Source of the DNA: a bacterium
Lineage (GTDB): Bacteria; Actinomycetota; Acidimicrobiia; Spongiisociales; Spongiisociaceae
DNA: 64,000 nt
Direction: 5' to 3'
NCBI GenBank assembly: GCA_028820935.1
Contig: JAPPHZ010000029.1
Span: 151,437 to 215,436 of the forward strand
Positions 8,316 to 50,733 of the stretch are shown piece by piece. The notes beneath the pieces were generated by a model, which saw only the letters and a program-made list of their open reading frames with translations, was not told where the DNA came from and searched no databases. The position numbers were made by a program, and so were the translations under genes. Positions within the stretch are counted from its first letter, which is position 1, and each line of letters starts with the position of its first letter.

Positions 8316-10685
8316 CTACGGCGCCCGCTTGCCCGCAGGGGGAGATGCGAGGTGGGCCACCAGGCCGGGGGTGAGAGGGAGGCGGTCGACTATCGGATGG
8401 CCGGGGAGGGCGTCGGCGACCGCATTGGCTATGGCCCCCGGCACGGCGATCATCCCCGATTCCCCCATCCCCTTCACGCCCAATACCGTGTTGGGCGAGG
8501 GAGACTCGATGTGGCCGATCCGGATGGTCGGCACCTCGGCACAAGTGGGGATCAGATAGTCCATGAGGCTGCTGGTCAGGATCTGCCCGTCGGCGCTGTA
8601 GGCCACTGTTTCGTGCAAGGTGTATCCCAGGGCCTGCGCCGCGGCGCCGTGAAGTTGGCCCTCCACGATCAATGGGTTGATCACCCGGCCGCAGTCCTCG
8701 ACCGCGACCAGGTCGACGACCGTTACGGCGCCGGTCTCCAGATCGAGTTCCACCGTGGCCACCACGCAGCCGTTCGAGTAGGTGGCGCCAGGGTCGTGGA
8801 AGCGTTGCGAGCTGAGCAGCGGCTCGGGTTCTACGACGCGCACCGCAGGGTCGAAATAGGCGGCCGCAGCCACGCGCTCCACGGCGATCCCGGCAGACGG
8901 GTCACCGGCCACGTGCACGATCCCATCACTGATGTCGAGATCGCGTGCGGACGCCTCCAGCAGATGGCCGGCGATCCGCAACAGCTTGGACCGCACGTCC
9001 TCAGATGCGAGCACCACCGCTCCGCCCGTTACGACGGCAGTGCGCGAGGCACGCGTGCCGGCGATGCTTGGTGGGGTGGCGTCGGTGTCGTCACTCCTTA
9101 CCTCGATGGTCTCCGGGGGGACACCCAGGGCGGCGGACGCCAGCTGGACCAGCGTCGTCTCGTGGCCCTGGCCCTGGGTGGGTGTCCCGACCGCCACGGT
9201 CACATGTCCGGTGGAGTCCATCGTGACGCGAGCGGCATCGTGGGAGGCGAAGACCCAGTGGGACTGGGCCGCGCCGGCGCTTCCCCATCCGTTAGGTTCG
9301 ACGTACGGGCTGATGCCGATCCCGCGCCGGCGCGGGTACATGTCGTTTTCCTGCTGCTGACGGAACGAGTGGTAGCAGGCCATCTCCAGGGCCTCGTGCA
9401 TGGATTCGAGAAACGATCCGCTGTCATAGACCATGCCCGTGACGTTGGTGTAGGGCGTCTCCTCCGATCGGATCATGTTCAGGCGCCGCAGCTCCGCCCG
9501 ATCCCGTCCTTCCTCGCGCGCTATGTGATCTATGAGGAGCTCGCGGGCGGTGTGGGAGGCGGTCCATCCCACCCCTCTGTACGGTGAGGCCGGCGCCTTG
9601 TTGGTGAGGACGGCCTGGATCTCGCACTCGAAGTGGTCGATCCTGTACAGGCTCGGGACGAGTAGCGCCGACAGGTACGGTTCGATGAGCGCGCTGGCGC
9701 TGTTGTGAGAGTAGGCGCCGGCGTCCCCGATGACCTTGGCGCGCATGGCCCGGAACCGGCCGGTCTCGTCGACGCTCATCTCCAGGGAGACGATCTGTTC
9801 CTTGGCCTGCGGGGCAGCGACCAGATTCTCCCGCCGGTCCTCGATCCACCTCACGGGGCGCTCGAGCGCCATCGACGCGAGAGCCACCGCAACCTCCTCC
9901 GGCGCCGCCGGGATCTTCTGGCCGAAGCCGCCTCCCACGTCGGGGACGATCACCCGCACTCTCGACTCGGGGAGGCCGGTGCTGACGGCCAGGCGACGGC
10001 GTAAGAGGTGATGCCCCTGGGTCGAGGACCACACGGTCAGCCGCCCCCGGTCGGCGTCGTAGGAGGCCAGGCAGCCGCGTGTCTCCACGGGAACCGCCGT
10101 TGCCCGTCCTCCATGGAACTCGGATCTGTACACCCGGTGGCCGGATGCGGGTTCCTTCGCCGGGTCCCCGAACCTCTTCACCTCGCTGAAGACGACGTTC
10201 GAGCCGAGTTCGGGGAAGAGGAGCGGAGCGCCGCTACGGGCTGCGGATCGCGCGTCGGTTACGGCAGGAAGCTCCTCGAAGTCGACGAAGACGAGGTCCG
10301 CGCCGTCCTCGGCGGCGTAGCGGTCGTCCGCAACGACGAGGGCGACCGGCTCACCGACGTAGCGGACCCGGTCCCCGGCTAGGGGTGGCTGCGGGGTCTT
10401 GGAGAGTCCTTCGATGGCGACGGCATCCACCAGCGGAGCGTGATCCGGGAGCGTGGCCGCCGTCAGCACGGCTCGAACGCCGTCCAGCCCGACCGCTCCC
10501 TGCGGATCGACCCCACGCCGGATGGCATGTGCGAACGGCGACCTCACGAAGGCTGCCTCGAGGGTCCCCGGGAGTCGAACATCGGCCAGGTACTCACCCG
10601 ATCCGGTGAGAAGACGAGGATCCTCTCTGCGGGTAAGCGGCGCGCCGATCAGGGAGGCCATCCGGTCCCGGTGGCCACCCATCAT
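8316..10685 (-). CDS. Molybdopterin-dependent oxidoreductase large subunit (xanthine dehydrogenase / CoxL / aldehyde oxidase family).
   Basis: 789 aa. N-terminus LTRREDPRLLTGSGEYLADV (a/b hammerhead). Length and internal motifs are typical of the Mo-binding subunit. Confidence 0.8.
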   Translation of the reverse strand: MMGGHRDRMASLIGAPLTRREDPRLLTGSGEYLADVRLPGTLEAAFVRSPFAHAIRRGVDPQGAVGLDGVRAVLTAATLPDHAPLVDAVAIEGLSKTPQPPLAGDRVRYVGEPVALVVADDRYAAEDGADLVFVDFEELPAVTDARSAARSGAPLLFPELGSNVVFSEVKRFGDPAKEPASGHRVYRSEFHGGRATAVPVETRGCLASYDADRGRLTVWSSTQGHHLLRRRLAVSTGLPESRVRVIVPDVGGGFGQKIPAAPEEVAVALASMALERPVRWIEDRRENLVAAPQAKEQIVSLEMSVDETGRFRAMRAKVIGDAGAYSHNSASALIEPYLSALLVPSLYRIDHFECEIQAVLTNKAPASPYRGVGWTASHTARELLIDHIAREEGRDRAELRRLNMIRSEETPYTNVTGMVYDSGSFLESMHEALEMACYHSFRQQQENDMYPRRRGIGISPYVEPNGWGSAGAAQSHWVFASHDAARVTMDSTGHVTVAVGTPTQGQGHETTLVQLASAALGVPPETIEVRSDDTDATPPSIAGTRASRTAVVTGGAVVLASEDVRSKLLRIAGHLLEASARDLDISDGIVHVAGDPSAGIAVERVAAAAYFDPAVRVVEPEPLLSSQRFHDPGATYSNGCVVATVELDLETGAVTVVDLVAVEDCGRVINPLIVEGQLHGAAAQALGYTLHETVAYSADGQILTSSLMDYLIPTCAEVPTIRIGHIESPSPNTVLGVKGMGESGMIAVPGAIANAVADALPGHPIVDRLPLTPGLVAHLASPPAGKRAP

Positions 10686-10860: not shown

Positions 10861-10938
10861 ATGTCCCGGACCCTCATAGCGGGAAGCACCGTGCTGGCGA
10901 ACGGAGACCTGGGGACCATTACGGGCGGCGTCTACCTC
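10861..10938 (+). pseudogene. Relic of a TRZ/ATZ-type amidohydrolase N-terminus (about 26 codons).
   Basis: MSRTLIAGSTVLANGDLGTITGGVYL matches the N-termini of the intact paralogs (MSRYLIVGNPVVTLADEAFITDGALIV, MSDRIIIENAAIVTMNEE). The frame then degenerates. A GGGAG RBS sits upstream. Confidence 0.45.
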
Positions 10939-11078
10939 AGGTTTCGTTACCGATTAGCGGGCCAACTGGATATTCTTCAGCACACTCCTAGGTACACTGC
11001 GCGACCGACCGTTCATGTGACCCGCCGGCGCTGTCACACCCCGGCTTGTCACAGGCCGCGTCAGAGTGACGAGAGGGG

Positions 11079-22400: not shown

Positions 22401-23519
22401 TCAACCGGTGTCTTTGTAACGTTCCAGGGCGTCCCGATCCAGGCGCACACCCAGCCCGGGGCCTTCAGGTGCCACAGCGACGCCCGCTCTCACGTCGAGA
22501 GGCTCGGCAATCACATCACCCTCGTAATAGAAGGGGCTGAGGATGTCCGCCGGTACGCGCCGGTCGAATCCGGGGGTCGAGGCTGCGATGTGGATGTGGG
22601 CCGCCAGCGCTATGCCGAGTTCCAGGTTGGATCCGATGGTCCACCCGAGACCGAATGACGTGGCCACGGCCGCCACCCGCCTGGCGGCGGCTATCCCGCC
22701 GGCCATACCGACATAAACGGACAGGATGTCGCATGACTCGTTCAGCGCGAGCAGCGCCGCGTCCTCCGGTGTACCGGCGGACTCGTCGGCGACCACCGGC
22801 ATCCTGACCTGCCGCCTTACCTCGGCCATGCCTGCCAGGTCCCGCGCCGGTACCGGCTGTTCCATGAACGAGACGCCCAGCGGGGCGATCTGACCGCCGG
22901 CCTGGATGGCCTCGCCGCGGTTCCACCCCCCGTTCGCGTCCACACCCAGTACCACGTCGTCACCGATCGCCGCCCGCACCGCCGCCACCCGGGCCACGTC
23001 AGCTCCGACACCGCCCCGCCCGACCTTGACCTTCATGGCCGTGAAGCCCTGCTCCACCGCCCAGGAGGCGACCTCGGCCGCGTGGTCCGGCTCTCGACCG
23101 GTCACCGAGAACTTGGTCGGAATCCGGGGCATGACCGGCCCGCCCAGCAACCGATGGACGGGTAGCCCTGCCGCCTTGCCGGCAATGTCCCACAGCGCCA
23201 TCTCGACCCCGGCTTTGGTGAAGTGATGGCCCGCTATGGCGCCGTCGATCACCGGGTGGAGCGCCTCTGGCGACCGGGGATCGAGGCCGGTGACCGCCGG
23301 TCCTATATATGTCTCGATCACGTGCCGGGCGGTTGACGAGTCCTCGCCGCTCCAGACCGGGGTGCAGGACACTTCTCCCAGCCCCACCAGGCCCTCGTCG
23401 GTCTCCACCTCGAGGATAAGGAAAGGCGAACGCTGGTGAGTCCCGCTGGCGCCGGCGATTATCCGCTCCTCGACCATAGGCACGGCCACCGCCGTGGAAC
23501 GTATCCGCTCGATTCTCAT
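22401..23519 (-). CDS. Enolase-superfamily enzyme (MR/MLE family).
   Basis: MRIERIRSTAVAVPMVEE...LILEVETDEGLVGLGE and the conserved metal-binding region. Confidence 0.8.
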   Translation of the reverse strand: MRIERIRSTAVAVPMVEERIIAGASGTHQRSPFLILEVETDEGLVGLGEVSCTPVWSGEDSSTARHVIETYIGPAVTGLDPRSPEALHPVIDGAIAGHHFTKAGVEMALWDIAGKAAGLPVHRLLGGPVMPRIPTKFSVTGREPDHAAEVASWAVEQGFTAMKVKVGRGGVGADVARVAAVRAAIGDDVVLGVDANGGWNRGEAIQAGGQIAPLGVSFMEQPVPARDLAGMAEVRRQVRMPVVADESAGTPEDAALLALNESCDILSVYVGMAGGIAAARRVAAVATSFGLGWTIGSNLELGIALAAHIHIAASTPGFDRRVPADILSPFYYEGDVIAEPLDVRAGVAVAPEGPGLGVRLDRDALERYKDTG

Positions 23520-24379
23520 ACAACGGCCTCCTGGTTCGACTCGTCCTCGAGCCCCAGCACCTGTAGCGCCGGGCGCCGGATGATCCCTTCGATGACCTCC
23601 TGAGGGATCGGTGGCCAGCCTGTTCCCGCCGAATCGTTGACCGCACGCAACGCCTCGGCGGTGCCGGACGGCGTGGCGAAAGGGAAGTCGCTTCCGAATA
23701 GGAGCTTGCCGGTGACCCGGTACTCCATCGCGGACCGCAACGCCATATACAGTTGGAAGGGCCTGGTGTGCAGGGCGGAGATATCAGCGTACAGGTTGGG
23801 GTGCTTGCGGATCACCGCCATCGTCTCCTCGCACCACGGGTGGCCGAGATGGGCGATGAACAGCCGCAGATCCGGACAGGCGCGGGCAACATCGTCTATC
23901 AGGAAAGGTCTGGCCCAACGCAGCGGCGCATCCGAGACGAAGGTGGTGCCCTGGTGGCACAGCACCGGCAGTTCGAGCTTCTCGGCGTGACGGAACAGGG
24001 CTATGGCTTGGGGGGAGGTGGGATCGAAGTGCTGGTATATGGGTCCCACCTTGAGACCTCTGAGACCCAGTTCCGAGACCGCGAAGGTCAACCGGTCCAA
24101 GGCGTCGGGCCGGTTGGGATCGACGCTTGCGAACCCGATCAGCTTGCCCGGCTGGGACGCCACGTACTCGCTGACGTACCGATCGGGCACCACCATCCCC
24201 ACCGCCGGGGCATCCATCGCCACCACTATCGCCCGGTCGACGTGTTCCATGGCCACCCGGTGCGCATCCAGGTCGTCCTGCGGCCAATTCATCTCGCCCC
24301 AGGCCCGGACCATCTCAGCCACGAATCTGGGGCTGAAGTGATCGCGGGAACCGACGTGGGTATGGGCGTCGACGATCAT
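23516..24379 (-). CDS. Amidohydrolase-2 family metal-dependent hydrolase (PF04909-like; ACMSD/LigI-type).
   Basis: MIVDAHTHVG start motif and HLGHPW...LFGSDFP C-terminal motifs. Paralog of 29503, 45417, 46468 and 49765. Confidence 0.8.
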   Translation of the reverse strand: MIVDAHTHVGSRDHFSPRFVAEMVRAWGEMNWPQDDLDAHRVAMEHVDRAIVVAMDAPAVGMVVPDRYVSEYVASQPGKLIGFASVDPNRPDALDRLTFAVSELGLRGLKVGPIYQHFDPTSPQAIALFRHAEKLELPVLCHQGTTFVSDAPLRWARPFLIDDVARACPDLRLFIAHLGHPWCEETMAVIRKHPNLYADISALHTRPFQLYMALRSAMEYRVTGKLLFGSDFPFATPSGTAEALRAVNDSAGTGWPPIPQEVIEGIIRRPALQVLGLEDESNQEAVV

Positions 24380-24431
24380 GTTGGGCGGACCTCAGGCAAG
24401 CGCGCCACGCCGTGCGGTCACGTATCTGCTC

Positions 24432-24538
24432 GGAGGGTGCTGAAAAAGGCGGGGATGGACCCTCGATGGCCCGTGGTGCCCTGGCATGCGGTCTTGTTGC
24501 CGAGTTTCGGGCCAACCGGACATTTTTCAGTACCCTCC
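24432..24538. repeat. Intergenic element copy C1: arms GGAGGGTGCTGAAAAAG(GCGGGGATGG) and GGACATTTTTCAGTACCCTCC, inverted around a 69-nt spacer.
   Basis: The right arm is identical over 21 of 21 nt and the left arm over 24 of 25 nt to copy C2 at 40755-40855, while the spacers have diverged. Confidence 0.6.
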
Positions 24539-25696
24539 CAGTGTCGCCGCCACGGCCAGGTACACGCGGGCGGAACCGGCCAGATGGTCGATCCAGACCC
24601 ACTCGTCCGGGGCGTAGTACCAGGCGCCCACGCCGTAGACGACCGTTTCCAATCCGGCCGCCGCCAGATCCGCCGCGTCGGTGACGAACGCCTGGCCGGG
24701 CAGTTCGTTGGTCACTCGCGGGGCATGGCCGACGATGGCGGTCTGCGCGGCCGATATGGCATCTACCAAGGCACCCGACGTGGCTCCCAGGAAAGGCTGG
24801 TGTAAACCGATGATCCGTACCCGGTGGCCTACGTCGTCCGGCACCACGCTCTGGACGATGTCCAGGATCTCCTGCCTGACCGTGGTCCGGTCCATCCCCG
24901 GGACATACCGGAGATCGCCGGTGATGGTCGCCGACTCTGCCACGGCCGCAGGCGAACTGCCGGCCTTGAGTTCCCCGATCAGCAGGCGGGGCAGGTCAGG
25001 TAGCCGGGGTTCCGGTTGGTGCGCGAACTCGTGGTCGACGAGCTTGTCGTAAATTGCCGCCGCAGGGCGGAGGGTATCGACGGCCGACTCCATGCGGGAC
25101 ACGTGCGCGGGAGACCCCGTCAGGGTAATCTCGAACTTGAATGCCCCCCCGTTGGCGGTGTGGATGTTCAGATCCGAGGGCTCCCCGCAGATGCCGTAAC
25201 CCTCGCCGGGTCCTTCGGTGGCCAGCGCGTACTTCGCGCCGAGCCCGATGCCGTCGTGATACATCGTCGCGTGCAGGATCAGGTCACCCGGAAGTCGGCG
25301 GAATCCGGCGGCGGCTTCCACGGCAGCCACCATCGCCGCTACCCCTCCGAGCATGTCCGTGATGCCTCCGCCGTACAACCTCCCGCCGGATTCCCAGGGG
25401 CTGTGGGCGCTGTGGGTCCAGTCGGAGGGGTACACCCCGGCATCGATGTGACCCTGCAAGACGAGAGGTGGCCTTCTCCCCTCGCCCCTTACCCGCGCTA
25501 TCACGTTGGGTCGGCCGGCTACGACATCCGCCACGTGAACGTCCGCCCCGGCGCGCTCGAGGGTCTCGGCGATGATCTCGGCTCGCGGACCCTCGGCCTG
25601 GGGATCATCCGACGGGACGCTGCACAGTGCTCGAGCGATCTCGACCACCCGCCGCGTCTCGACGGCGGCGGCGGCGCGTTCGAACCGGTGGTTCAT
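24527..25696 (-). CDS. M20-family metallopeptidase / deacylase (ArgE/DapE-like).
   Basis: M20 pattern: HID metal site (LVLQGHIDAGV) and a dimerisation domain. 389 aa. Confidence 0.75.
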   Translation of the reverse strand: MNHRFERAAAAVETRRVVEIARALCSVPSDDPQAEGPRAEIIAETLERAGADVHVADVVAGRPNVIARVRGEGRRPPLVLQGHIDAGVYPSDWTHSAHSPWESGGRLYGGGITDMLGGVAAMVAAVEAAAGFRRLPGDLILHATMYHDGIGLGAKYALATEGPGEGYGICGEPSDLNIHTANGGAFKFEITLTGSPAHVSRMESAVDTLRPAAAIYDKLVDHEFAHQPEPRLPDLPRLLIGELKAGSSPAAVAESATITGDLRYVPGMDRTTVRQEILDIVQSVVPDDVGHRVRIIGLHQPFLGATSGALVDAISAAQTAIVGHAPRVTNELPGQAFVTDAADLAAAGLETVVYGVGAWYYAPDEWVWIDHLAGSARVYLAVAATLGGY

Positions 25697-35369: not shown

Positions 35370-36473
35370 CTAGTAGCGGACCAGGCTCCGGATGCCTTCT
35401 CCGATTTCGAACTGGTGGAGAGCGCCGTTGATGTCCTCCTGGTCGATCTCGGCGGTGATCAGTTCGTCCAGCAGGAGTTTGCCGGCCTTGTACAACTCGA
35501 CATAGCGGGGGATGTCGAAGGCGGGCCGCAGCGAGCCGTAGTAGCAGCCCAAGAGCTTGCGCTCGTCGATCAGAAGGCCCATGTCGACGGTGAGTTCGGA
35601 CCCGTACGGTGCGACGCCCACCTGCACGGCCGTGCCTCCCCGGCAGAGCGAACGGACCGCAGTGGCCACGGTCTCGGGATCGCCGATCGCCTCCACCGCC
35701 AGGTCCACCCCGAGTCCGCCGGTCATGGCGATGAGGGTCTCGGCCGTCTCCACTTCGGAGGCGTTCACCGTATGGGTGGCGCCGAAGCGTCGGGCGGCTT
35801 CGAGCTTGTGCTCGGCGATGTCGACTCCGATTATCTTCCCGGCGCCCCGCAGCCGCGCTCCCTGGATGGCGTTGAGTCCGATGCCCCCGCAGCCGATGAC
35901 GGCGACGCTGTCGCCGAGTTGCACGTTGCCCGTGTTGACGACAGCTCCGACCCCGGTGGAGACGGCGCAGCCGATCACGGCGAGGGGCTCGAGGGGAACA
36001 CCGTCCGGGACCGGGATCGCTGCCGGAGCCGGCACGGTCACCTCCCGAGAGTAGGTGGACAACATCATGCTGTGGCTGATCGTCTCGCCGTTGCTGCCCG
36101 TGAACCGGCTGGTCCAGTCTTGCAACCGCCCCTCCCAGGAGGGTCCGATCGCGGTCATGCACAGCGCAGGGCGTCCTGTGGCGCAGTACCTGCATGTGCC
36201 GCACGGCGCAACCCACGAAAGGACCACACGGTCGCCGACCTGGACGGTCGAGGGGCCGGGTCCGACGGCGGCCACGATGCCGGCTCCCTCGTGGCCGCAG
36301 ATGAGCGGCAGGTTGACGGGAATGTGACCCTGCACCAGATGCAGATCGCTGTGGCACACGCCGCTTGACACCATCCGGACGAGAACCTCGTTGGCCTTGG
36401 GTTCTTCCAGTTCGACCTCTTCGACGACCAGCGGAGTGTTGAACTCGCGCAGCACCGCTGCTCTTGTCCTCAT
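35370..36473 (-). CDS. Zn-dependent alcohol dehydrogenase (copy 1 of a tandem pair).
   Basis: GVCHSDLH motif and structural-Zn cysteines (CGTCRYC). About 88% amino-acid identity to 37098..38201. Confidence 0.85.
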   Translation of the reverse strand: MRTRAAVLREFNTPLVVEEVELEEPKANEVLVRMVSSGVCHSDLHLVQGHIPVNLPLICGHEGAGIVAAVGPGPSTVQVGDRVVLSWVAPCGTCRYCATGRPALCMTAIGPSWEGRLQDWTSRFTGSNGETISHSMMLSTYSREVTVPAPAAIPVPDGVPLEPLAVIGCAVSTGVGAVVNTGNVQLGDSVAVIGCGGIGLNAIQGARLRGAGKIIGVDIAEHKLEAARRFGATHTVNASEVETAETLIAMTGGLGVDLAVEAIGDPETVATAVRSLCRGGTAVQVGVAPYGSELTVDMGLLIDERKLLGCYYGSLRPAFDIPRYVELYKAGKLLLDELITAEIDQEDINGALHQFEIGEGIRSLVRY

Positions 36474-36753
36474 CCAGATCCTCCTTGCACGGAGCGCTGC
36501 CTGGGGCGTACCTCACGCCGCTGCTTGCGGACCTGAGTGGTCTGTCTGGCAAACGACTTGGCGTGCTCTGCTTGCCATCGACGTCCCTCGCTGCGTTCCG
36601 CCTCCTTGACGTACCGCTGCGGGTACGCCTTCGTCGGCGGGCCTTGCGAGGAACGCCGCTGCCGTCGCATTTCGCGCCGCCGCTCACCCGGCAGACCACC
36701 GGATAGCCTCCCGCAAGCGTAGGCGATGTCGCATAGCGAGGGAGGACTACTGA

Positions 36754-36855
36754 ATGAGATACGGGATCGGCGCCGTCAACTCACTCCTGATCGATGACTC
36801 CACCGCCATGCCCGACATCTACCGGCTGCGGAAGACCGCGGCTACGACTTGCTGA
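36754..36855 (+). pseudogene. Truncated relic of an LLM-oxidoreductase 5' end (MRYGIGAVNSLLIDDSTAM...), duplicated from 38286.
   Basis: About 85% nt identity to the start of the intact LLM gene. An internal deletion creates a premature stop. Confidence 0.6.
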
Positions 36856-37097
36856 CCCTGATCGATCACGTCCTGCTCGCCGACCCGGCCGCTAGCCCCG
36901 ATTATTCATGGATGGGGGTTTGTGGGGGAGCTCGGAATGGGTGCTTCGTGGTCCTGACCGGGGGCTATAGCCATTTGACAGCCCCATCTTCCGGCCGGGT
37001 GTGGAATCAACCGCCGGGTGAAGGGTGGCTGCTCGCGAACGATGTCGTTGAAGTGGCCTGAATCGGGTTGGTGTGCTGGGAACAGGAATAATCAGGA

Positions 37098-38201
37098 CTA
37101 GTAAAGGACCAGGCTCCGGATGCCTTCTCCACGGTCGAACTGGTTGAGCGCGTCGTTGATGCCGTCCTGGCCGATCTCGGCGGTGATCAGTTCGTCTACC
37201 AGGAGTTTGCCGGCCTGGTACAACTCGACATAGCGGGGGATGTCGAAGGTAGGCCGCAGCGAGCCGTAGTAGCACCCGAGGAGCTTGCGCTCGTCGAGCA
37301 GCAGGGTCATGTCGACGGAGACCTCGGTTCCGTATGGCGCTATCCCGACCTGCACGGCCGTGCCGCCCCGGCGAAGCGAACGGACCGCAGTGGCCACGGT
37401 CTCGGGATGGCCGATCGCCTCTACCGCCAGGTCCACCCCGAGTCCGCCGGTCATGGCGATGAGCGTTTCCGAGGCCTCCACCTCCGAAGCGTTCACGGTA
37501 TGGGTGGCGCCGAAACGTCGGGCCGCTTCGAGCTTTTCCTCGCTGATGTCGACTCCGATTATCTTCCCGGCGCCCCGCAGCCGCGCTCCCTGGATGGCGT
37601 TGAGTCCGACACCCCCGCAGCCGATGACGGCAACGCTGTCGCCGAGTTGCACATCGCCGGTGTTGACGACAGCTCCGACCCCGGTGGAGACGGCGCATCC
37701 GATCACGGCGAGGGGCTCCAGCGGAACATCGTCCGGAACCCTGATCGCGGCCGAAGCCGGCACGGTCACCTCCCGGGAGAAGGTCGACAGCATCAGGTGG
37801 TGGCTGATGGTTGTCCCGTCGGGGGCTGTGAAGCGGCTCGTTCCGTCGTAGAGTTGGCCCTCGTAGGAGGGTCCGATGGCGGTCATGCACAGGGCCGGGT
37901 TTCCTGTGGCGCAATAGTTGCAGTTGCCGCACGGCGAGACCCAGGAGAGGACCACCCGGTCGCCGACCTGCACGGTGGACGGTCCGGGCCCTACCGCGGT
38001 CACGATCCCGGCGCCCTCGTGGCCGCAAATGATCGGCAGGTTCACGGGGATATGGCCCTGCACGATATGCAGATCACTGTGGCATACCCCGCTCGACACC
38101 ATCTCCACCGAGACCTCGTTGGCCTTGGGTGCTTGCAGCTCGACCTCCTCGACCACCAACGGGGTGTTGAACTCGTGAAGTACCGCCGCTCTCGTTCTCA
38201 T
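37098..38201 (-). CDS. Zn-dependent alcohol dehydrogenase (copy 2).
   Basis: Same motifs as copy 1. Confidence 0.85.
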   Translation of the reverse strand: MRTRAAVLHEFNTPLVVEEVELQAPKANEVSVEMVSSGVCHSDLHIVQGHIPVNLPIICGHEGAGIVTAVGPGPSTVQVGDRVVLSWVSPCGNCNYCATGNPALCMTAIGPSYEGQLYDGTSRFTAPDGTTISHHLMLSTFSREVTVPASAAIRVPDDVPLEPLAVIGCAVSTGVGAVVNTGDVQLGDSVAVIGCGGVGLNAIQGARLRGAGKIIGVDISEEKLEAARRFGATHTVNASEVEASETLIAMTGGLGVDLAVEAIGHPETVATAVRSLRRGGTAVQVGIAPYGTEVSVDMTLLLDERKLLGCYYGSLRPTFDIPRYVELYQAGKLLVDELITAEIGQDGINDALNQFDRGEGIRSLVLY

Positions 38202-38285
38202 TCCCGATCCTCCGTCTCCAGTGGTACCCGTACCGGAAGGTAGCCTCCTTAAGGCTACGGGATGCGGACTGGAGGAGCATGCAAA

Positions 38286-39182
38286 ATGAAGTACGGGATA
38301 GGCGCCGTCAACTCACTTCTCATCGACGATCCCACCGCCATGCGTGATGTCGCCCAGGCAGCCGAAGGTCTCGGCTACGACTTCCTTACGCTGATCGATC
38401 ACGTCCTGCTCGCTTACCCGGCCGCGGACGGGACGCCCCGGGCGCACTATCCGGCCCGGACCCCCTACCACGACATCCTGGTTGCTCTCGGGTATCTAGG
38501 GGGTGTCACGACCCGGATCGCGCTGCGTTCCGCAGTGGTGATCATGCCTCAGCGGGGTCCCGCGGTCGTCGCCAAGCAGGCGGCCGCTGCGGACAGCCTC
38601 TCCGGAGGGCGTCTCGAGCTGGGGCTCGGGATCGGATGGCACCTGGAGGAATACGACGCCCTGGAGGTTCCCTTCACGGAGCGGGGCCGGCGGATGGACG
38701 AGGGAATCGAGTTGATGAAGCTGCTCTGGACCCGGGACCGGGTCGACTTCGACGGGCGCTTCTACCGGGTTGACGGCATGGGAATGGAGCCGAAGCCGGT
38801 GACCCGGCCTCACCCGCCGTTGTGGTTCGGCGGCACGACCCCACCGGTTTTCCGGCGGGTCGTGGATCACGGTGTGGGCTGGTTGTCGAGGCCTGTCCAG
38901 ACGGTGGAGGAGATCGGCGCCTGCTGGAAGGAGATCCGGCGTCTCGCCGGCGAGGCGGGTCGGGACGCGGACGCGCTCCGCCTCCACGTCTCGGTGGGCC
39001 TGGGTCCGGAGGAGACCACCGATCAGATAGTCGGCAACGTGCGCAGGATGATCTCGGTGGGAGCGACGGATGTCTCGTTCTTCACCAGCTACATGCCCGG
39101 CATCGAGTCCGCCGGTGACCACATCGCTCAGCTTGAGCGGGCCATGTCCGACGTTGTGCCGGCGGTGGACGCCGGCCCGTAG
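38286..39182 (+). CDS. LLM-class flavin/F420-dependent oxidoreductase.
   Basis: MKYGIGAV start with a GGAGGAG RBS upstream. LGYDFLTLIDHV and LLM barrel motifs. The 3' end converges on and overlaps hyuB by 55 nt. Confidence 0.75.
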   Translation: MKYGIGAVNSLLIDDPTAMRDVAQAAEGLGYDFLTLIDHVLLAYPAADGTPRAHYPARTPYHDILVALGYLGGVTTRIALRSAVVIMPQRGPAVVAKQAAAADSLSGGRLELGLGIGWHLEEYDALEVPFTERGRRMDEGIELMKLLWTRDRVDFDGRFYRVDGMGMEPKPVTRPHPPLWFGGTTPPVFRRVVDHGVGWLSRPVQTVEEIGACWKEIRRLAGEAGRDADALRLHVSVGLGPEETTDQIVGNVRRMISVGATDVSFFTSYMPGIESAGDHIAQLERAMSDVVPAVDAGP

Positions 39183-40777
39183 CCGCCTCCTCCACTGGTC
39201 TCCACCCTGATGATCGACCCGGGTTCCAGAGAGGAGGAGGTCTTCGAGGCTGTCGATACGACCTGCCCATCGGGCCCGAGGATCGTCACCCTGGTGGGGC
39301 GGGCGTCATCGCCCCCTCCCACCCCCTCCGGCCGGTGCTCCTCGATGGCCTGCTCGCAGTAGAGGGTGGCGATCTGGGGGACGTCGAGGATCTGGTACTC
39401 GCGACAGATCCCCAGGCCGCCGGGCAGCAGGCCCTCTCCGGACGAGTCCTCGACGAGTTCGCTCTTGAGTATGCGGACCGAGTACTCGGTCTCGGCCACC
39501 TCGACCGGTAGCAGCGCCACGTTGGACATGTAGGTGTCCACCCCGTCGATTCCCCTTCCGTGGTCATGCGCGCCGGTCCCGCCGCCCACCACCTCCATGA
39601 GCACCGCGGTCTCGCCGGTCTGGGGGGATCTGCTGCCGATCTGCAAGCCGAAGAAGGTGACGCTGCTGCTGGCCACTGCCCGGGCCGGCCACAGATCCGA
39701 GGCTGTCCGGATGAGGGTGTCGGCGACCACCTGGCAGGTGTTGTGCCGCACGGAGACCGCCGCTGGGAACCGCGGATTCAGGATGGTTCCCGACGGGCAC
39801 GTGATGGTGACGGGCGCCAGCAAGCCGTCGTTGGAGGGGATGTCCAACCCCACCATGGTGCGGACCAGGTAGGCCACGCATGCCCGGGTGCTAGCCCAGG
39901 GCACGTTGAGCGCGCCGTCCACCTGGGGGGACGACCCGGTGAAATCCACGTGCAGCGCCCGGCCGGTCTTGGCGAGCCGCACGCGGATCGGTACGGGGGC
40001 GCTGCCGAGTCCGTCATCGTCGAGATGGCCGGTGCGTACGGCTTCTCCATCGTCGAGGTCAGCCAAGGCAGAGGCGGTCTGCCGGGCGGTCCGGTCGAGA
40101 ATCTCGGCGAACGCGGCGCCCACCTGGTCGGGTCCGTACCGTTCCATCGTGCGCAATAGCGCCCTCTCTCCTGTGAGACAGGAGGCGTGCTGGGCCCGCA
40201 GGTCGGCCACCAACCCGCGGGGTTCCCGCACGTTGGCGGCGATCATCCGGACCAGGTCCCGGTTCTCCTCGCCCCCTTGGTAGAGCTTGATGGGCGGGAA
40301 GATCAGACCCTCGGCGAACAATTCCCGGTGGTGGGGCGCCAGCGTGCCGGGTGTGGGGCCGCCCAGGTCGACGTGGTGGGCCGTCGATCCGGCCCACCCG
40401 ACCACCCGGCCGTCCGAGAAGACCGGCATGACCAGGTTCAGGTCCGGCGTATGCATGCATCCCATGTACGGATGGTTGAGCAGGAAGGCGTCGCCCGGCT
40501 GCACGTCGCCGGGGTCCGGATACTCGGCTCTGCAGGTCTGGACGGCTAGCGACATCGCTCCCAACTGGGCGGGAATCCGCTCGTCCTGAGCCACCGATTC
40601 GCCTCCGGGAGCGAAGATGGCGCAGCTGAAGTCCTCCATCTCCCTGATGATGGGGCTGTGGCTGGAACGCTTGAGGATCATCGCCATCTCGCGAGCGGCG
40701 TGGCGGAGCCGGCTGTGGATCAACTCGTAGGTGACCGGATCGAGGTTCTTGCTAGGAGGGTACTGAAAAATGTCCAT
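39128..40777 (-). CDS. hyuB: Hydantoinase B / oxoprolinase-family protein (HyuB).
   Basis: MDIFQYPPSKNLDPVTYELIHSRL N-terminus and the conserved HyuB core. 549 aa. Confidence 0.85.
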   Translation of the reverse strand: MDIFQYPPSKNLDPVTYELIHSRLRHAAREMAMILKRSSHSPIIREMEDFSCAIFAPGGESVAQDERIPAQLGAMSLAVQTCRAEYPDPGDVQPGDAFLLNHPYMGCMHTPDLNLVMPVFSDGRVVGWAGSTAHHVDLGGPTPGTLAPHHRELFAEGLIFPPIKLYQGGEENRDLVRMIAANVREPRGLVADLRAQHASCLTGERALLRTMERYGPDQVGAAFAEILDRTARQTASALADLDDGEAVRTGHLDDDGLGSAPVPIRVRLAKTGRALHVDFTGSSPQVDGALNVPWASTRACVAYLVRTMVGLDIPSNDGLLAPVTITCPSGTILNPRFPAAVSVRHNTCQVVADTLIRTASDLWPARAVASSSVTFFGLQIGSRSPQTGETAVLMEVVGGGTGAHDHGRGIDGVDTYMSNVALLPVEVAETEYSVRILKSELVEDSSGEGLLPGGLGICREYQILDVPQIATLYCEQAIEEHRPEGVGGGDDARPTRVTILGPDGQVVSTASKTSSSLEPGSIIRVETSGGGGYGPASTAGTTSDMARSS

Positions 40778-40855
40778 CTGGCCTGATAGTAGGTAATGAA
40801 GACCCAGTTCAGGGGATCACGCGCCAACCTATCCCCGTCTTTTTCAGCACCCTCC
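40755..40855. repeat. Intergenic element copy C2 at the hyuA-hyuB junction.
   Basis: In the minus-strand mRNA, the arms GGAGGGUGCUGAAAAAG and CAUUUUUCAGUACCCUCC pair over about 15 bp (one G-U wobble). The 3' arm encodes hyuB codons 2-8. hyuB has no evident Shine-Dalgarno sequence. Confidence 0.6.
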
Positions 40856-45283: not shown

Positions 45284-45370
45284 GGAGGGTGCCGGAAAAG
45301 ACGAGCAGGGGTTGGCCCGCGATCCCGCGACCTGGGTTTCGTTGCCGGTGTCGGGCATGGCGGACGGTGC
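45284..45370. repeat. Diverged third copy (C3) of the intergenic element (GGAGGGTGCCGGAAAAGACGAGCAGGGGTTGGCCCGCGATCCCGCGACCTGGGT...).
   Basis: About 75% identity to the left arm plus spacer of C2. The right arm is not recognisable. Confidence 0.45.
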
Positions 45371-46467: not shown

Positions 46468-47442
46468 CTACTTGCTACTGGGTCGGTGGTGGTGTAGTCG
46501 GTAGACGCGGCGGGTGTTCTCTCCGAGTATTTGGTCGATTTCGTGTTGGGGGATGCGGTAGCCCAGTTGTTTGGCCCATTCGGGGAGCATGCGGAATTGG
46601 TCTACCCATTGTTTGAGGGTTAGGGAGACTTCTATGCCGGCCATGTCGGAGCCGAAGAGGATGCGGTCGGGTCCGATGCGGTCTCTCATCCATACGATTT
46701 TGCGGACTAGTTCGTCGGGGGAGATCCAGTGTTGCCATAGGCTCATGTCGAGGTGGACGTTGGTTTTGTAGATGGCGACGGAGATGGCTTCATGCGCCCA
46801 GGTTTCGTAGCGGGCGGAGTGGCCGAGGATGAAGCGTAGGTCGGGGAAGTCGGCGGCGGCTGAGTCGACGTAGATGGGGTGTCCGTATTTTGATTTGTGT
46901 CGTCCTGCGGAGTGTCCTTGGTGGAGGAGTACGGGTAGGTCTCTTTCGAGGAGGAACCGGTAGAGGGGGTAGACGACGTTTTCGTCGTCGGGGTAGAAGC
47001 CGTTGGTGGGATACAGTTTGAGGCCTATGGCGCCCCATTGGTCTACTGCGGTGGTGAGTATTTCGAGGGCGTCGGGGCGTCGGGGGTCTACTCCGCAGAA
47101 GGTGTAGAGGCGTCCGGGGTGTCTTTTGGTGGCTTCGGCGCAGAGCCGGTTCTTTTCTGCGATGGGGATGACGCCTTCTTCGCCCAGGCCGACACCGTGG
47201 TCCATGGGCATCATCACCGACGCGTCGACCCCGGCCTCGTCCATGCGAGCAACCGCCTTATCACCCGTGATGTCCGTAGCCTCCGCAACCCTCGCATGCA
47301 GGTAGGAGGGATCCGACTTGGGCGGGTCGTACCAGCGCACCTGCCTCGCCCATGAGGCATCCATGCCGGACCTCAGGTTGACAGGGTTCCAATCATCACC
47401 CCGGATGTGCATGTGGCAATCCACCACGAGAGCCCCGCTCAT
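46468..47442 (-). CDS. Amidohydrolase-2 family hydrolase (copy A). The C-terminal 260 aa are encoded by an identical 783-bp block shared with copy B.
   Basis: VVDCHMHI motif. ATGA overlap with the upstream SDR stop. Confidence 0.75.
   Translation of the reverse strand: MSGALVVDCHMHIRGDDWNPVNLRSGMDASWARQVRWYDPPKSDPSYLHARVAEATDITGDKAVARMDEAGVDASVMMPMDHGVGLGEEGVIPIAEKNRLCAEATKRHPGRLYTFCGVDPRRPDALEILTTAVDQWGAIGLKLYPTNGFYPDDENVVYPLYRFLLERDLPVLLHQGHSAGRHKSKYGHPIYVDSAAADFPDLRFILGHSARYETWAHEAISVAIYKTNVHLDMSLWQHWISPDELVRKIVWMRDRIGPDRILFGSDMAGIEVSLTLKQWVDQFRMLPEWAKQLGYRIPQHEIDQILGENTRRVYRLHHHRPSSK
46483..47265. repeat. 783-bp block that is 100% identical to 49780..50562 (direct repeat, offset 3297 bp).
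   Basis: Line-by-line identity was checked at several points. The block has lower GC and A/T-ending codons. Confidence 0.85.
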
Positions 47443-49764: not shown

Positions 49765-50733
49765 TCACCGTCCGCTGTTTCGGTGGTGGTGTAGTCGGTA
49801 GACGCGGCGGGTGTTCTCTCCGAGTATTTGGTCGATTTCGTGTTGGGGGATGCGGTAGCCCAGTTGTTTGGCCCATTCGGGGAGCATGCGGAATTGGTCT
49901 ACCCATTGTTTGAGGGTTAGGGAGACTTCTATGCCGGCCATGTCGGAGCCGAAGAGGATGCGGTCGGGTCCGATGCGGTCTCTCATCCATACGATTTTGC
50001 GGACTAGTTCGTCGGGGGAGATCCAGTGTTGCCATAGGCTCATGTCGAGGTGGACGTTGGTTTTGTAGATGGCGACGGAGATGGCTTCATGCGCCCAGGT
50101 TTCGTAGCGGGCGGAGTGGCCGAGGATGAAGCGTAGGTCGGGGAAGTCGGCGGCGGCTGAGTCGACGTAGATGGGGTGTCCGTATTTTGATTTGTGTCGT
50201 CCTGCGGAGTGTCCTTGGTGGAGGAGTACGGGTAGGTCTCTTTCGAGGAGGAACCGGTAGAGGGGGTAGACGACGTTTTCGTCGTCGGGGTAGAAGCCGT
50301 TGGTGGGATACAGTTTGAGGCCTATGGCGCCCCATTGGTCTACTGCGGTGGTGAGTATTTCGAGGGCGTCGGGGCGTCGGGGGTCTACTCCGCAGAAGGT
50401 GTAGAGGCGTCCGGGGTGTCTTTTGGTGGCTTCGGCGCAGAGCCGGTTCTTTTCTGCGATGGGGATGACGCCTTCTTCGCCCAGGCCGACACCGTGGTCC
50501 ATGGGCATCATCACCGACGCGTCGACCCCGGCCTCGTCCATGCGAGCAACCGCCTTATCACCGTTACCGTCGGCGGCCACACTCCAAGCCTTCGCGAAGT
50601 ACTCGGGGTCGGACTTGGGAGGGTCGTACCAGCGCACCTGCCTAGCCCAGGATTCGGCCATACCCGAGGACACGTTCATCGGGTTCCAATCGGGTTCCAT
50701 GATGTGCATATGGCAGTCCACCACCAAGGGCAT
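49765..50733 (-). CDS. Amidohydrolase-2 family hydrolase (copy B).
   Basis: MPLVVDCHMHI start with an AGAGGAG RBS upstream. The C-terminal 260 aa are identical to copy A. Confidence 0.75.
   Translation of the reverse strand: MPLVVDCHMHIMEPDWNPMNVSSGMAESWARQVRWYDPPKSDPEYFAKAWSVAADGNGDKAVARMDEAGVDASVMMPMDHGVGLGEEGVIPIAEKNRLCAEATKRHPGRLYTFCGVDPRRPDALEILTTAVDQWGAIGLKLYPTNGFYPDDENVVYPLYRFLLERDLPVLLHQGHSAGRHKSKYGHPIYVDSAAADFPDLRFILGHSARYETWAHEAISVAIYKTNVHLDMSLWQHWISPDELVRKIVWMRDRIGPDRILFGSDMAGIEVSLTLKQWVDQFRMLPEWAKQLGYRIPQHEIDQILGENTRRVYRLHHHRNSGR
49780..50562. repeat. Second copy of the identical 783-bp block.
   Basis: See 46483..47265. Confidence 0.85.

Follow-up and report, generated by a model that had tools for sequence, protein, structure and literature searches.

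The window analysed here, a stretch of 64,000 nucleotides, carries on its minus strand a Peptidase_M20 gene (24527-25696) followed by an Amidohydro_2 gene (23516-24379). At the junction of the two genes lies a 107-nt repeat with inverted arms, which we designate copy A. The M20/amidohydrolase operon runs along the minus strand, so that in its mRNA the R end of copy A comes first. Genes identical to the M20 gene of the window occur on ENA and Logan sponge-metagenome contigs. The features of the locus, in order of their coordinates, are as follows.

24377-24379, minus strand: ATG of the Amidohydro_2 gene, 53 nt beyond copy A and outside the element
24418-24429, minus strand: relic of the pre-insertion 3' end of the M20 gene, GCA GAT ACG TGA (A D T stop), directly behind copy A
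24432-24538, plus strand: copy A of the putative MITE, 107 nt, with the family arms (filled orthologue L052:6180-6285; empty orthologues L123 and L125)
24432 and 24538: the 'L' end of copy A (GGAGGGTGCTGAAAAAG) and its 'R' end (reverse complement GGAGGGTACTGAAAAAT), respectively
24432-24447, plus strand: left terminal inverted repeat of copy A, 16-nt core
24465-24473, plus strand: inner subterminal block GATGGCCCG (family consensus GTTGGCCCG), complementary to 24508-24516
24508-24516, plus strand: inner subterminal block CGGGCCAAC
24523-24538, minus strand: right terminal inverted repeat of copy A, 16-nt core
24527-24529, minus strand: present stop codon TGA of the M20 gene, from element nt 10-12

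The right terminal inverted repeat of copy A has A at position 8, not the G of the left one, as is also the case in most members of the family described below.

A second copy, copy B, lies at the hyuA/hyuB junction of the same window. Aligned with the reverse complement of 40755-40855, copy A was identical at 24 of 25 positions of the left arm and at 21 of 21 of the right arm, confirming an earlier note on this DNA, which had reported a copy with such arms at 24432-24538 between the M20 and amidohydrolase genes. The same note had placed the M20 stop in the right arm and an arm about 50 nt upstream of the amidohydrolase start, and both placements hold: the M20 ORF ends in GGA GGG TAC TGA within the right arm, and the left arm lies 53 nt before the ATG at 24379. 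Its figure of a 69-nt spacer with about 65% similarity is approximate. With arms of 25 and 21 nt, copy A has a spacer of 61 nt and copy B one of 55 nt, and the interiors match at 32 of 55 aligned positions (58%; 52% with the 6-nt gap counted). The flanks of the two copies are unrelated (6/20 and 5/20 matches). With up to 3 mismatches allowed, the window contained 6 occurrences of the arm 17-mer where 0.07 were expected, and a count of 6 was reached in 0 of 100 shuffles. The further copies and the empty site in the window are listed here.

8317-8318: empty target site, a single TA within the stop codon of a 789-aa ORF at 8316-10685 (minus strand)
10934-10988, plus strand: copy D, right half, consensus positions 47-101 at 82% identity, TA on the right, left half eroded
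40755-40855, minus strand: copy B, 101 nt, hyuA/hyuB junction, TA on both flanks
45284-45356, plus strand: copy C, decayed or truncated, consensus positions 1-75 at 85% identity, right arm lost

Longer direct repeats, 1.5-3.3 kb apart, are also present in the window (46478-46777 and 49775-50074, 99%; 35370-35669 and 37098-37397, 87%; 36753-36892 and 38285-38425, 86%). These are probably recently duplicated or paralogous genes, unrelated to the MITE.

Genomes, one per species, were scanned with a pattern for one arm only, GGAGGGTRCTGAAAAAKRYSS, giving at least 120 loci (L-numbers denote fetched loci). The loci on genome contigs yielded at least 89 complete elements of 96-117 nt, and the same pattern applied to metagenome contigs yielded 54 more with a median of 101 nt, giving a total of at least 143 complete copies, 96-121 nt in size with a median of 101 nt. 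Among the matches listed, nearly all real ones came from MAGs of Acidimicrobiia or Candidatus Spongiisocius, many of them named as sponge-derived, and in each of two single MAGs a perfect arm was present in at least 15-16 loci. Complete MAG chromosomes with members of the family include OZ241858.1, OZ219922.1/OZ219923.1, OY760694.1 and OZ246890.1. Matches in Paraprevotella, Chryseobacterium, Syntrophobacteraceae, Pirellulaceae and others were rejected as single chance arms with no second arm. BLAST of the consensus against plasmids gave chance-level matches only, and a scan of viral contigs gave one chance match and no element.

The family consensus, GGAGGGTGCTGAAAAAGACGGGGATGGGTTGGCCCGCGATGCCTTGACCTGGGGTTTCGTTGCCGGCTATCGGGCCAACTGGACATTTTTCAGTACCCTCC, is about 101 nt long and is bounded by 16-nt terminal inverted repeats (GGAGGGTRCTGAAAAA), the two ends differing at position 8. 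The pair 8/137 is G-U in 73 of the 89 listed copies. An inner complementary pair, GTTGGCCCG/CGGGCCAAC, forms subterminal blocks that are conserved at 70-90%. One subfamily, beginning GGAGCATG... and ending ...CACACTCC, is found in several genomes (L050:2685-2784, L051:1435-1535, L080:2520-2620, L081:1941-2043). Both of its arms are altered at positions 5-6 in a non-complementary manner, so that pairing is broken.

Variants of the element were observed in the Actinomycetota soil MAG SMAG_U2847, which belongs to a different lineage. These are 111-113 nt long, with the same 17-nt arms at both ends and TA flanks but an unrelated interior, and are located as follows.

L015:399-509
L020:2402-2514
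L064:6945-7056
L075:6580-6691

A nested pair with the variant arms AGAGGGTGCTGAAAAA was present in an unrelated metagenome (L198:900-1200). The SMAG_U2847 and AGAGGGTGCTGAAAAA elements suggest a wider group sharing one end type, and the occurrence of the same arms on unrelated interiors, together with the AGAGGGTGCTGAAAAA variant, is compatible with the arms being a recognised module.

Several unusual arrangements were also observed. A 300-nt copy at L072:7532-7833 and L165:8569-8868 contains a middle section of about 200 nt with lower GC (51%). Orthology of these loci (94% identity, shared flanks) makes this copy a single event; it was considered as a longer derivative of the parent and rejected, having no ORF and no Rfam match. 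At L214:704-902, two head-to-tail copies form a tandem dimer with one TA between them. Another MITE-like family, unrelated to the first, has elements of about 165 nt with arms CTAGTGGTCTGTCTG... and was encountered at L002:5155-5322, in L123 and at 36536 in the window, its arm occurring 45 times in 27 fetched sources. In two related contigs this second family sits between the amidohydrolase and MR_MLE genes, and it is absent from that position in the window and in L001. Several copies of the element studied here are inserted at the terminal ..ACCACTA/G of the second family (flanks of L055, L104 and L111).

The flanks of the copies bear the mark of insertion at TA. Among the 89 listed genome copies, 36 had TA on both sides, 49 had it on the left and 58 had it on the right, against a background of 2.5% in the same flanks; in the independent metagenome copies it was present on both sides in 33 of 54. 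A BLAST search of the flanks of every element against all other loci and the window gave five orthologous filled/empty comparisons, in each of which the flanks abut at the empty site with one shared TA.

L027 (filled) and window 8317-8318 (empty): the filled orthologue, L027:4264-4364, is a 101-nt copy with TA on both sides
L018 and L086
L080:2520 and L058/L085/L042
L108 and L021
L080:4429 and L042

These differences in presence and absence, with the duplication of TA, identify the element as mobile DNA. At one TA site, the element occurs in opposite orientations in L080:4429-4532 and L085:5765-5865, and the site is empty in L042:110-165, reflecting either two independent insertions there or an inversion. 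The reconstructed target is C-TA-G, with C before TA in 42/69 and G after TA in 46/69 cases and CTAG as the commonest form (23/69), counts to be read with the caveat that in a GC-rich genome TA itself is enriched in TAG/CTA at stop codons. Elements of the IS630 family target TA and duplicate it, IS630 itself preferring CTAG (PMC2170065). The element thus combines the properties of a MITE (small size, no transposase gene, terminal inverted repeats, TA duplication and many dispersed copies with insertion differences) with the target properties of the IS630/Tc1-mariner group (insertion at TA, a 2-bp duplication and CTAG as the commonest target).

The consequences of insertion can be followed where the M20 gene ends. 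Close M20 homologues, at 79-94% identity, have a length of 390 aa and end in ..LGADT* or ..LGADS*, whereas the protein predicted from the window ends in ..LGGY*. Two element-free orthologous contigs (L123, L125) read ..CTG GGC GCT GAT ACG TGA, and the window and the filled orthologue L052 read ..CTG (element) GA GCA GAT ACG TGA. Written out, the orthologous empty sites are CTGGGCGCTGATACGTGA and the window is CTG, 107 nt of element and GAGCAGATACGTGA; the old codons for A D T stop therefore persist behind copy A. Both states, filled and empty, occur within one metagenome series (L002 against L123). On this comparison of orthologous sequences, copy A is shown to have interrupted the last codons of the M20 gene, with the element providing a predicted Gly-Tyr-stop as replacement. 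The insertion is older than the split from MAG CO36387bin_10 (locus L052), in which the flanks are 93-96% identical. Copy A itself is not flanked by TA (TC and CA on the plus strand), and no TA is present at that spot in the two empty orthologues, from which its TA target is not reconstructable. Later substitutions, a 3-nt or other small deletion, or a non-canonical insertion are therefore required. For ISY100 in vitro, non-canonical flanks were found in 5/39 insertions, about 13% (PMC2170065).

Copy B has a different relationship to its neighbours. Its insertion point is the TA of an overlapping hyuA stop and hyuB start, and the empty hyuA/hyuB junctions at L127:536-660 and L128:536-660 read GCGATGGCTAGCCGG, with a single TA where copy B of the window has TA on each side. 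The present hyuA stop, TAG, consists of the target TA and the first G of the element. In the window, the original ATG of hyuB has been lost (CGATTA), and the addition of 103 bases puts the frame out of register; the start of an intact 549-aa hyuB is therefore confined to an ATG inside copy B, and the longest hyuB ORF begins at this ATG (40775-40777, minus strand). For a hyuB that is otherwise intact, copy B thus appears to be the sole source of a usable start codon. The predicted N-terminus is MDIFQYPPSKN-LDPVT in the window and MASRK-LDPVT in homologues. The internal ATG belongs to a family variant, CAGATGG, the consensus being CAACTGG.

Termination of an incoming gene by the element is common in the family. 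Using a crude gene caller based on GC3, the incoming predicted gene was found to stop at or in the element in 33 of the 89 listed copies, with 22 TAG stops (target TA plus the first G of the element) and 11 TGA stops (element nt 10-12, as in copy A). Read from the consensus, the third frame stops after 12-17 codons. The overlap of copy A with the M20 stop is therefore a generic by-product of the element ends and not a design feature. Genes neighbouring the family copies are unrelated, with no association with one gene class, and the insertion sites also include convergent intergenic regions and positions inside or beside copies of the second repeat family. Copies do not maintain the reading frame across the element, and coding capacity is absent. 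A candidate peptide or translational-coupling ORF, starting at an ATG 15 nt inside the R end after GGAGG, was rejected because its frame is scrambled by indels; it is open in 43 of the 67 copies with the ATG, similar to the best-open of the other frames.

Conservation along the element was compared as identity to the family consensus, with the remainder of the element as reference. Because the sample was ascertained on one arm, only the far arm was measured.

Copies seeded on arm L (n=64): far 16-mer 90.3%, rest 77%, difference +0.13 (95% CI 0.10-0.16), far arm perfect in 30/64
Copies seeded on arm R (n=63): far 16-mer 91.9%, rest 80%, difference +0.12 (95% CI 0.09-0.15), far arm perfect in 33/63

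In each seeded set, 8 copies, about 13%, had a far arm with 4-10 mismatches. The centre has changed more than the arms, yet these are not perfectly conserved, and the subterminal blocks have been retained as well. The view in the earlier note that the repeat is more than a passive duplication relic, and that its arms matter more than its middle, is upheld; far-arm identities are 90-92% against 77-80% for the rest. Its description of the arms as perfectly conserved does not extend to the family, in which only about half of the copies have a perfect far arm, nor is conservation restricted to the arms, since the whole element of about 101 nt has a consensus that includes the subterminal blocks. 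The picture of a decaying repeat, which had been set against selection on the arms, is partly borne out by the decayed arms in about 13% of copies and by the two decayed copies in the window.

Pairing between the arms was then considered in the 89 listed copies. The 16-nt arms are paired in 96.3% of cells, and pairing was 91.6% against 90.9% in shuffles. No compensatory changes in the arms were detected: covariation was 0.072 against 0.070 when shuffled, a value reached by 152/500 shuffles, and the proposal that selection acts on the stem was accordingly not upheld. Departures from pairing are mostly broken pairs, both sides being changed in only 13 cells. In eight orthologous filled pairs, the un-ascertained arm differed at 4/168 positions (2.4%) and the interior at 28/470 (6.0%), with p=0.10, and the mostly coding flanks differed at about 8%. 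The slower divergence of the arm is a trend (p=0.10), from which post-insertion constraint would be an unproven reading. An old insertion at one orthologous site in at least 5 MAGs (L011, L042, L058, L091, L092) exemplifies decay after insertion. It is seen as a solo R arm with flanks ccatgtccta ... tactcggcctcgtgg, in which one arm is intact and the other eroded (CTCCAGCACCCGCC).

We consider it very likely that copy A is one copy of a MITE family of about 101 nt, probably mobilised in trans by an IS630-type transposase. As part of such a family, its conserved arms would be transposon ends and not a purpose-built control site. In the mechanism we propose, the element is non-coding, with 16-nt terminal inverted repeats, a second inner complementary block and a variable centre. 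A DDE transposase of IS630/Tc1-mariner type, encoded elsewhere, would bind the arms and move the element by cut and paste, with insertion at TA, most often CTAG, and duplication of the TA. Only copies with intact arms would found new copies, leaving the centre free to differ between source lineages, and the arms would seem better conserved than the centre for this reason. Selection at the level of transposition is the simplest reading of arm conservation. Each inserted copy would then decay. The end of the element, TA followed by GGAGGGTRCTGA, would shut an incoming frame immediately (TAG) or after four codons (TGA), so that insertions at gene ends would be tolerated, and the whole element would form a long hairpin in the operon mRNA.

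The fetched loci, about 1.5 Mb in all (~0.9 Mb genome, 0.66 Mb metagenome), were searched for the source of mobilisation. No transposase with matching ends was found in them, and a regular expression for the IS630-like motif YSPxLNPxE gave no match in their six-frame translations. The IS630 assignment is thus drawn only from the TA/CTAG target and the 2-bp duplication. Pairs of arms at a distance of 130-3500 nt were considered as a possible parent transposon and rejected as two separate MITEs beside ordinary genes, and the genes enclosed by pairs at 0.8-3 kb are ordinary ones. 'Solo' arms considered as IS ends were found to be decayed or truncated MITEs instead.

Several other explanations of the conserved arms were weighed against the MITE reading. 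The arms could pair in the mRNA as a host cis-regulatory hairpin controlling processing, stability or translational coupling of the M20 and amidohydrolase genes, with selection on the stem. Such a role is consistent with the folding of both strands of copies A and B (a 16-bp terminal stem, z-scores -2.5 to -3.8), with the location of elements within operons, with the proposal that MITE hairpins in Neisseria mRNAs are RNase III targets (PMC2229807), and with the lower divergence of the arm than the interior in orthologous pairs, which is not significant. It is nevertheless improbable, given that the arms show no compensatory variation and mostly broken pairs, that copies A and B are oppositely oriented relative to their operons (for the listed family copies between co-directional genes the orientations number 14 vs 7, not significant), and that the same element lies at unrelated genes, in convergent regions and in the second repeat family while missing from otherwise intact orthologous operons. 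No sigma-70-like promoter was found, the sole match resembling a terminator is weak and lies antisense to the operon, and Rfam gave 0 matches at the gathering threshold for the window as a whole and at E<=1 for the surroundings of copy A and of the 300-nt variant. Individual copies may have been secondarily co-opted by the host. A broader version of this idea, in which the hairpin serves as intercistronic punctuation in sponge-symbiont operon mRNAs (processing, stability, re-initiation) and is maintained by selection after insertion, is suggested by the gene-closing ends, the hyuB start in copy B and the arm divergence of 2.4% against 6.0% (p=0.10), and we regard it as unlikely.

Two near-identical inverted arms around a variable spacer also resemble an operator at which a dimeric DNA-binding protein of the host would use each arm as a half-site, the spacer having no role. 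This is very improbable: dimeric regulators do not typically have half-sites separated by about 70 nt, many copies per genome lie at functionally unrelated loci, decayed copies are frequent, and TA duplication and empty orthologous sites point elsewhere. A transposase is the simpler candidate for a protein bound to the arms, and the earlier suggestion of a protein-binding site is near the truth if so understood, though not as the site of a dimeric host regulator. There is scarcely any likelihood that the element is a REP/BIME-type repeat moved by a RAYT (an IS200/IS605-like tyrosine transposase) and not a transposon with terminal inverted repeats. It shares with REPs the character of a short, abundant, palindromic repeat found mostly outside genes, but REPs are about 20-40 nt long and lack target duplication, whereas the present element is about 101 nt long, with 16-nt terminal inverted repeats and a TA duplication checked against empty sites.

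On the MITE reading, these copies represent a previously undescribed and abundant family, of a known type of element, in uncultured sponge-associated Acidimicrobiia; a literature search turned up no paper describing it, nor any on MITEs of sponge Acidimicrobiia. The analysis sets right a tempting misreading, in that conserved arms around a variable spacer in an operon are here no evidence of a regulatory site. The family is of practical use in MAG annotation, in which its repeats cause assembly breaks and displaced gene calls, and the filled and empty sites can be used as a strain marker. The two complete copies in the window illustrate how gene ends are rewritten, the M20 C-terminus being replaced and the hyuB start codon apparently so. 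Existing knowledge of how such elements work is unchanged, and the findings describe ordinary biology in a poorly studied lineage.

Among known systems, the element resembles RUP of Streptococcus pneumoniae, a MITE of 107 bp for which IS630-Spn1 is the presumed source of mobilisation. Common to them are a length of about 100-107 bp, terminal inverted repeats, insertion at TA with TA bordering both termini, dispersal in many copies and the lack of an encoded protein (PMC2229807). The two differ in host (low-GC Firmicutes for RUP, high-GC Acidimicrobiia here), in the parent IS, which is known for RUP while none was found here in about 1.5 Mb of fetched loci, and in reading frames, RUP having stops in all six while this element is often open in one or two. 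The Correia/NEMIS elements of Neisseria are similar in size (about 107 bp), in having long terminal inverted repeats, in TA duplication and in insertion at gene ends and in operons, and likewise form long transcript hairpins and may be joined in frame to adjacent ORFs; their terminal inverted repeats are 24-26 bp, compared with 16 plus an inner block here (PMC2229807). Correia elements further differ in phylum and in carrying an IHF site and attributed promoter and RNase III effects, whereas no promoter-like site was found here. The likeness to both systems is one of description, as we know of no sequence similarity between the element and RUP or Correia repeats, and since their hosts belong to other phyla, membership of these families is not claimed. 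With IS630 and ISY100, bacterial relatives of Tc1-mariner and the presumed transposase class, the element shares insertion at TA and a 2-bp duplication, and with IS630 also CTAG; both are autonomous, measure about 1 kb or more and carry a transposase gene, which this element lacks. Stowaway-type plant MITEs, derived from Tc1/mariner, are short and non-autonomous, with terminal inverted repeats and TA duplication, and are mobilised in trans. They are eukaryotic and unrelated in sequence, and follow the same logic as the element described here.
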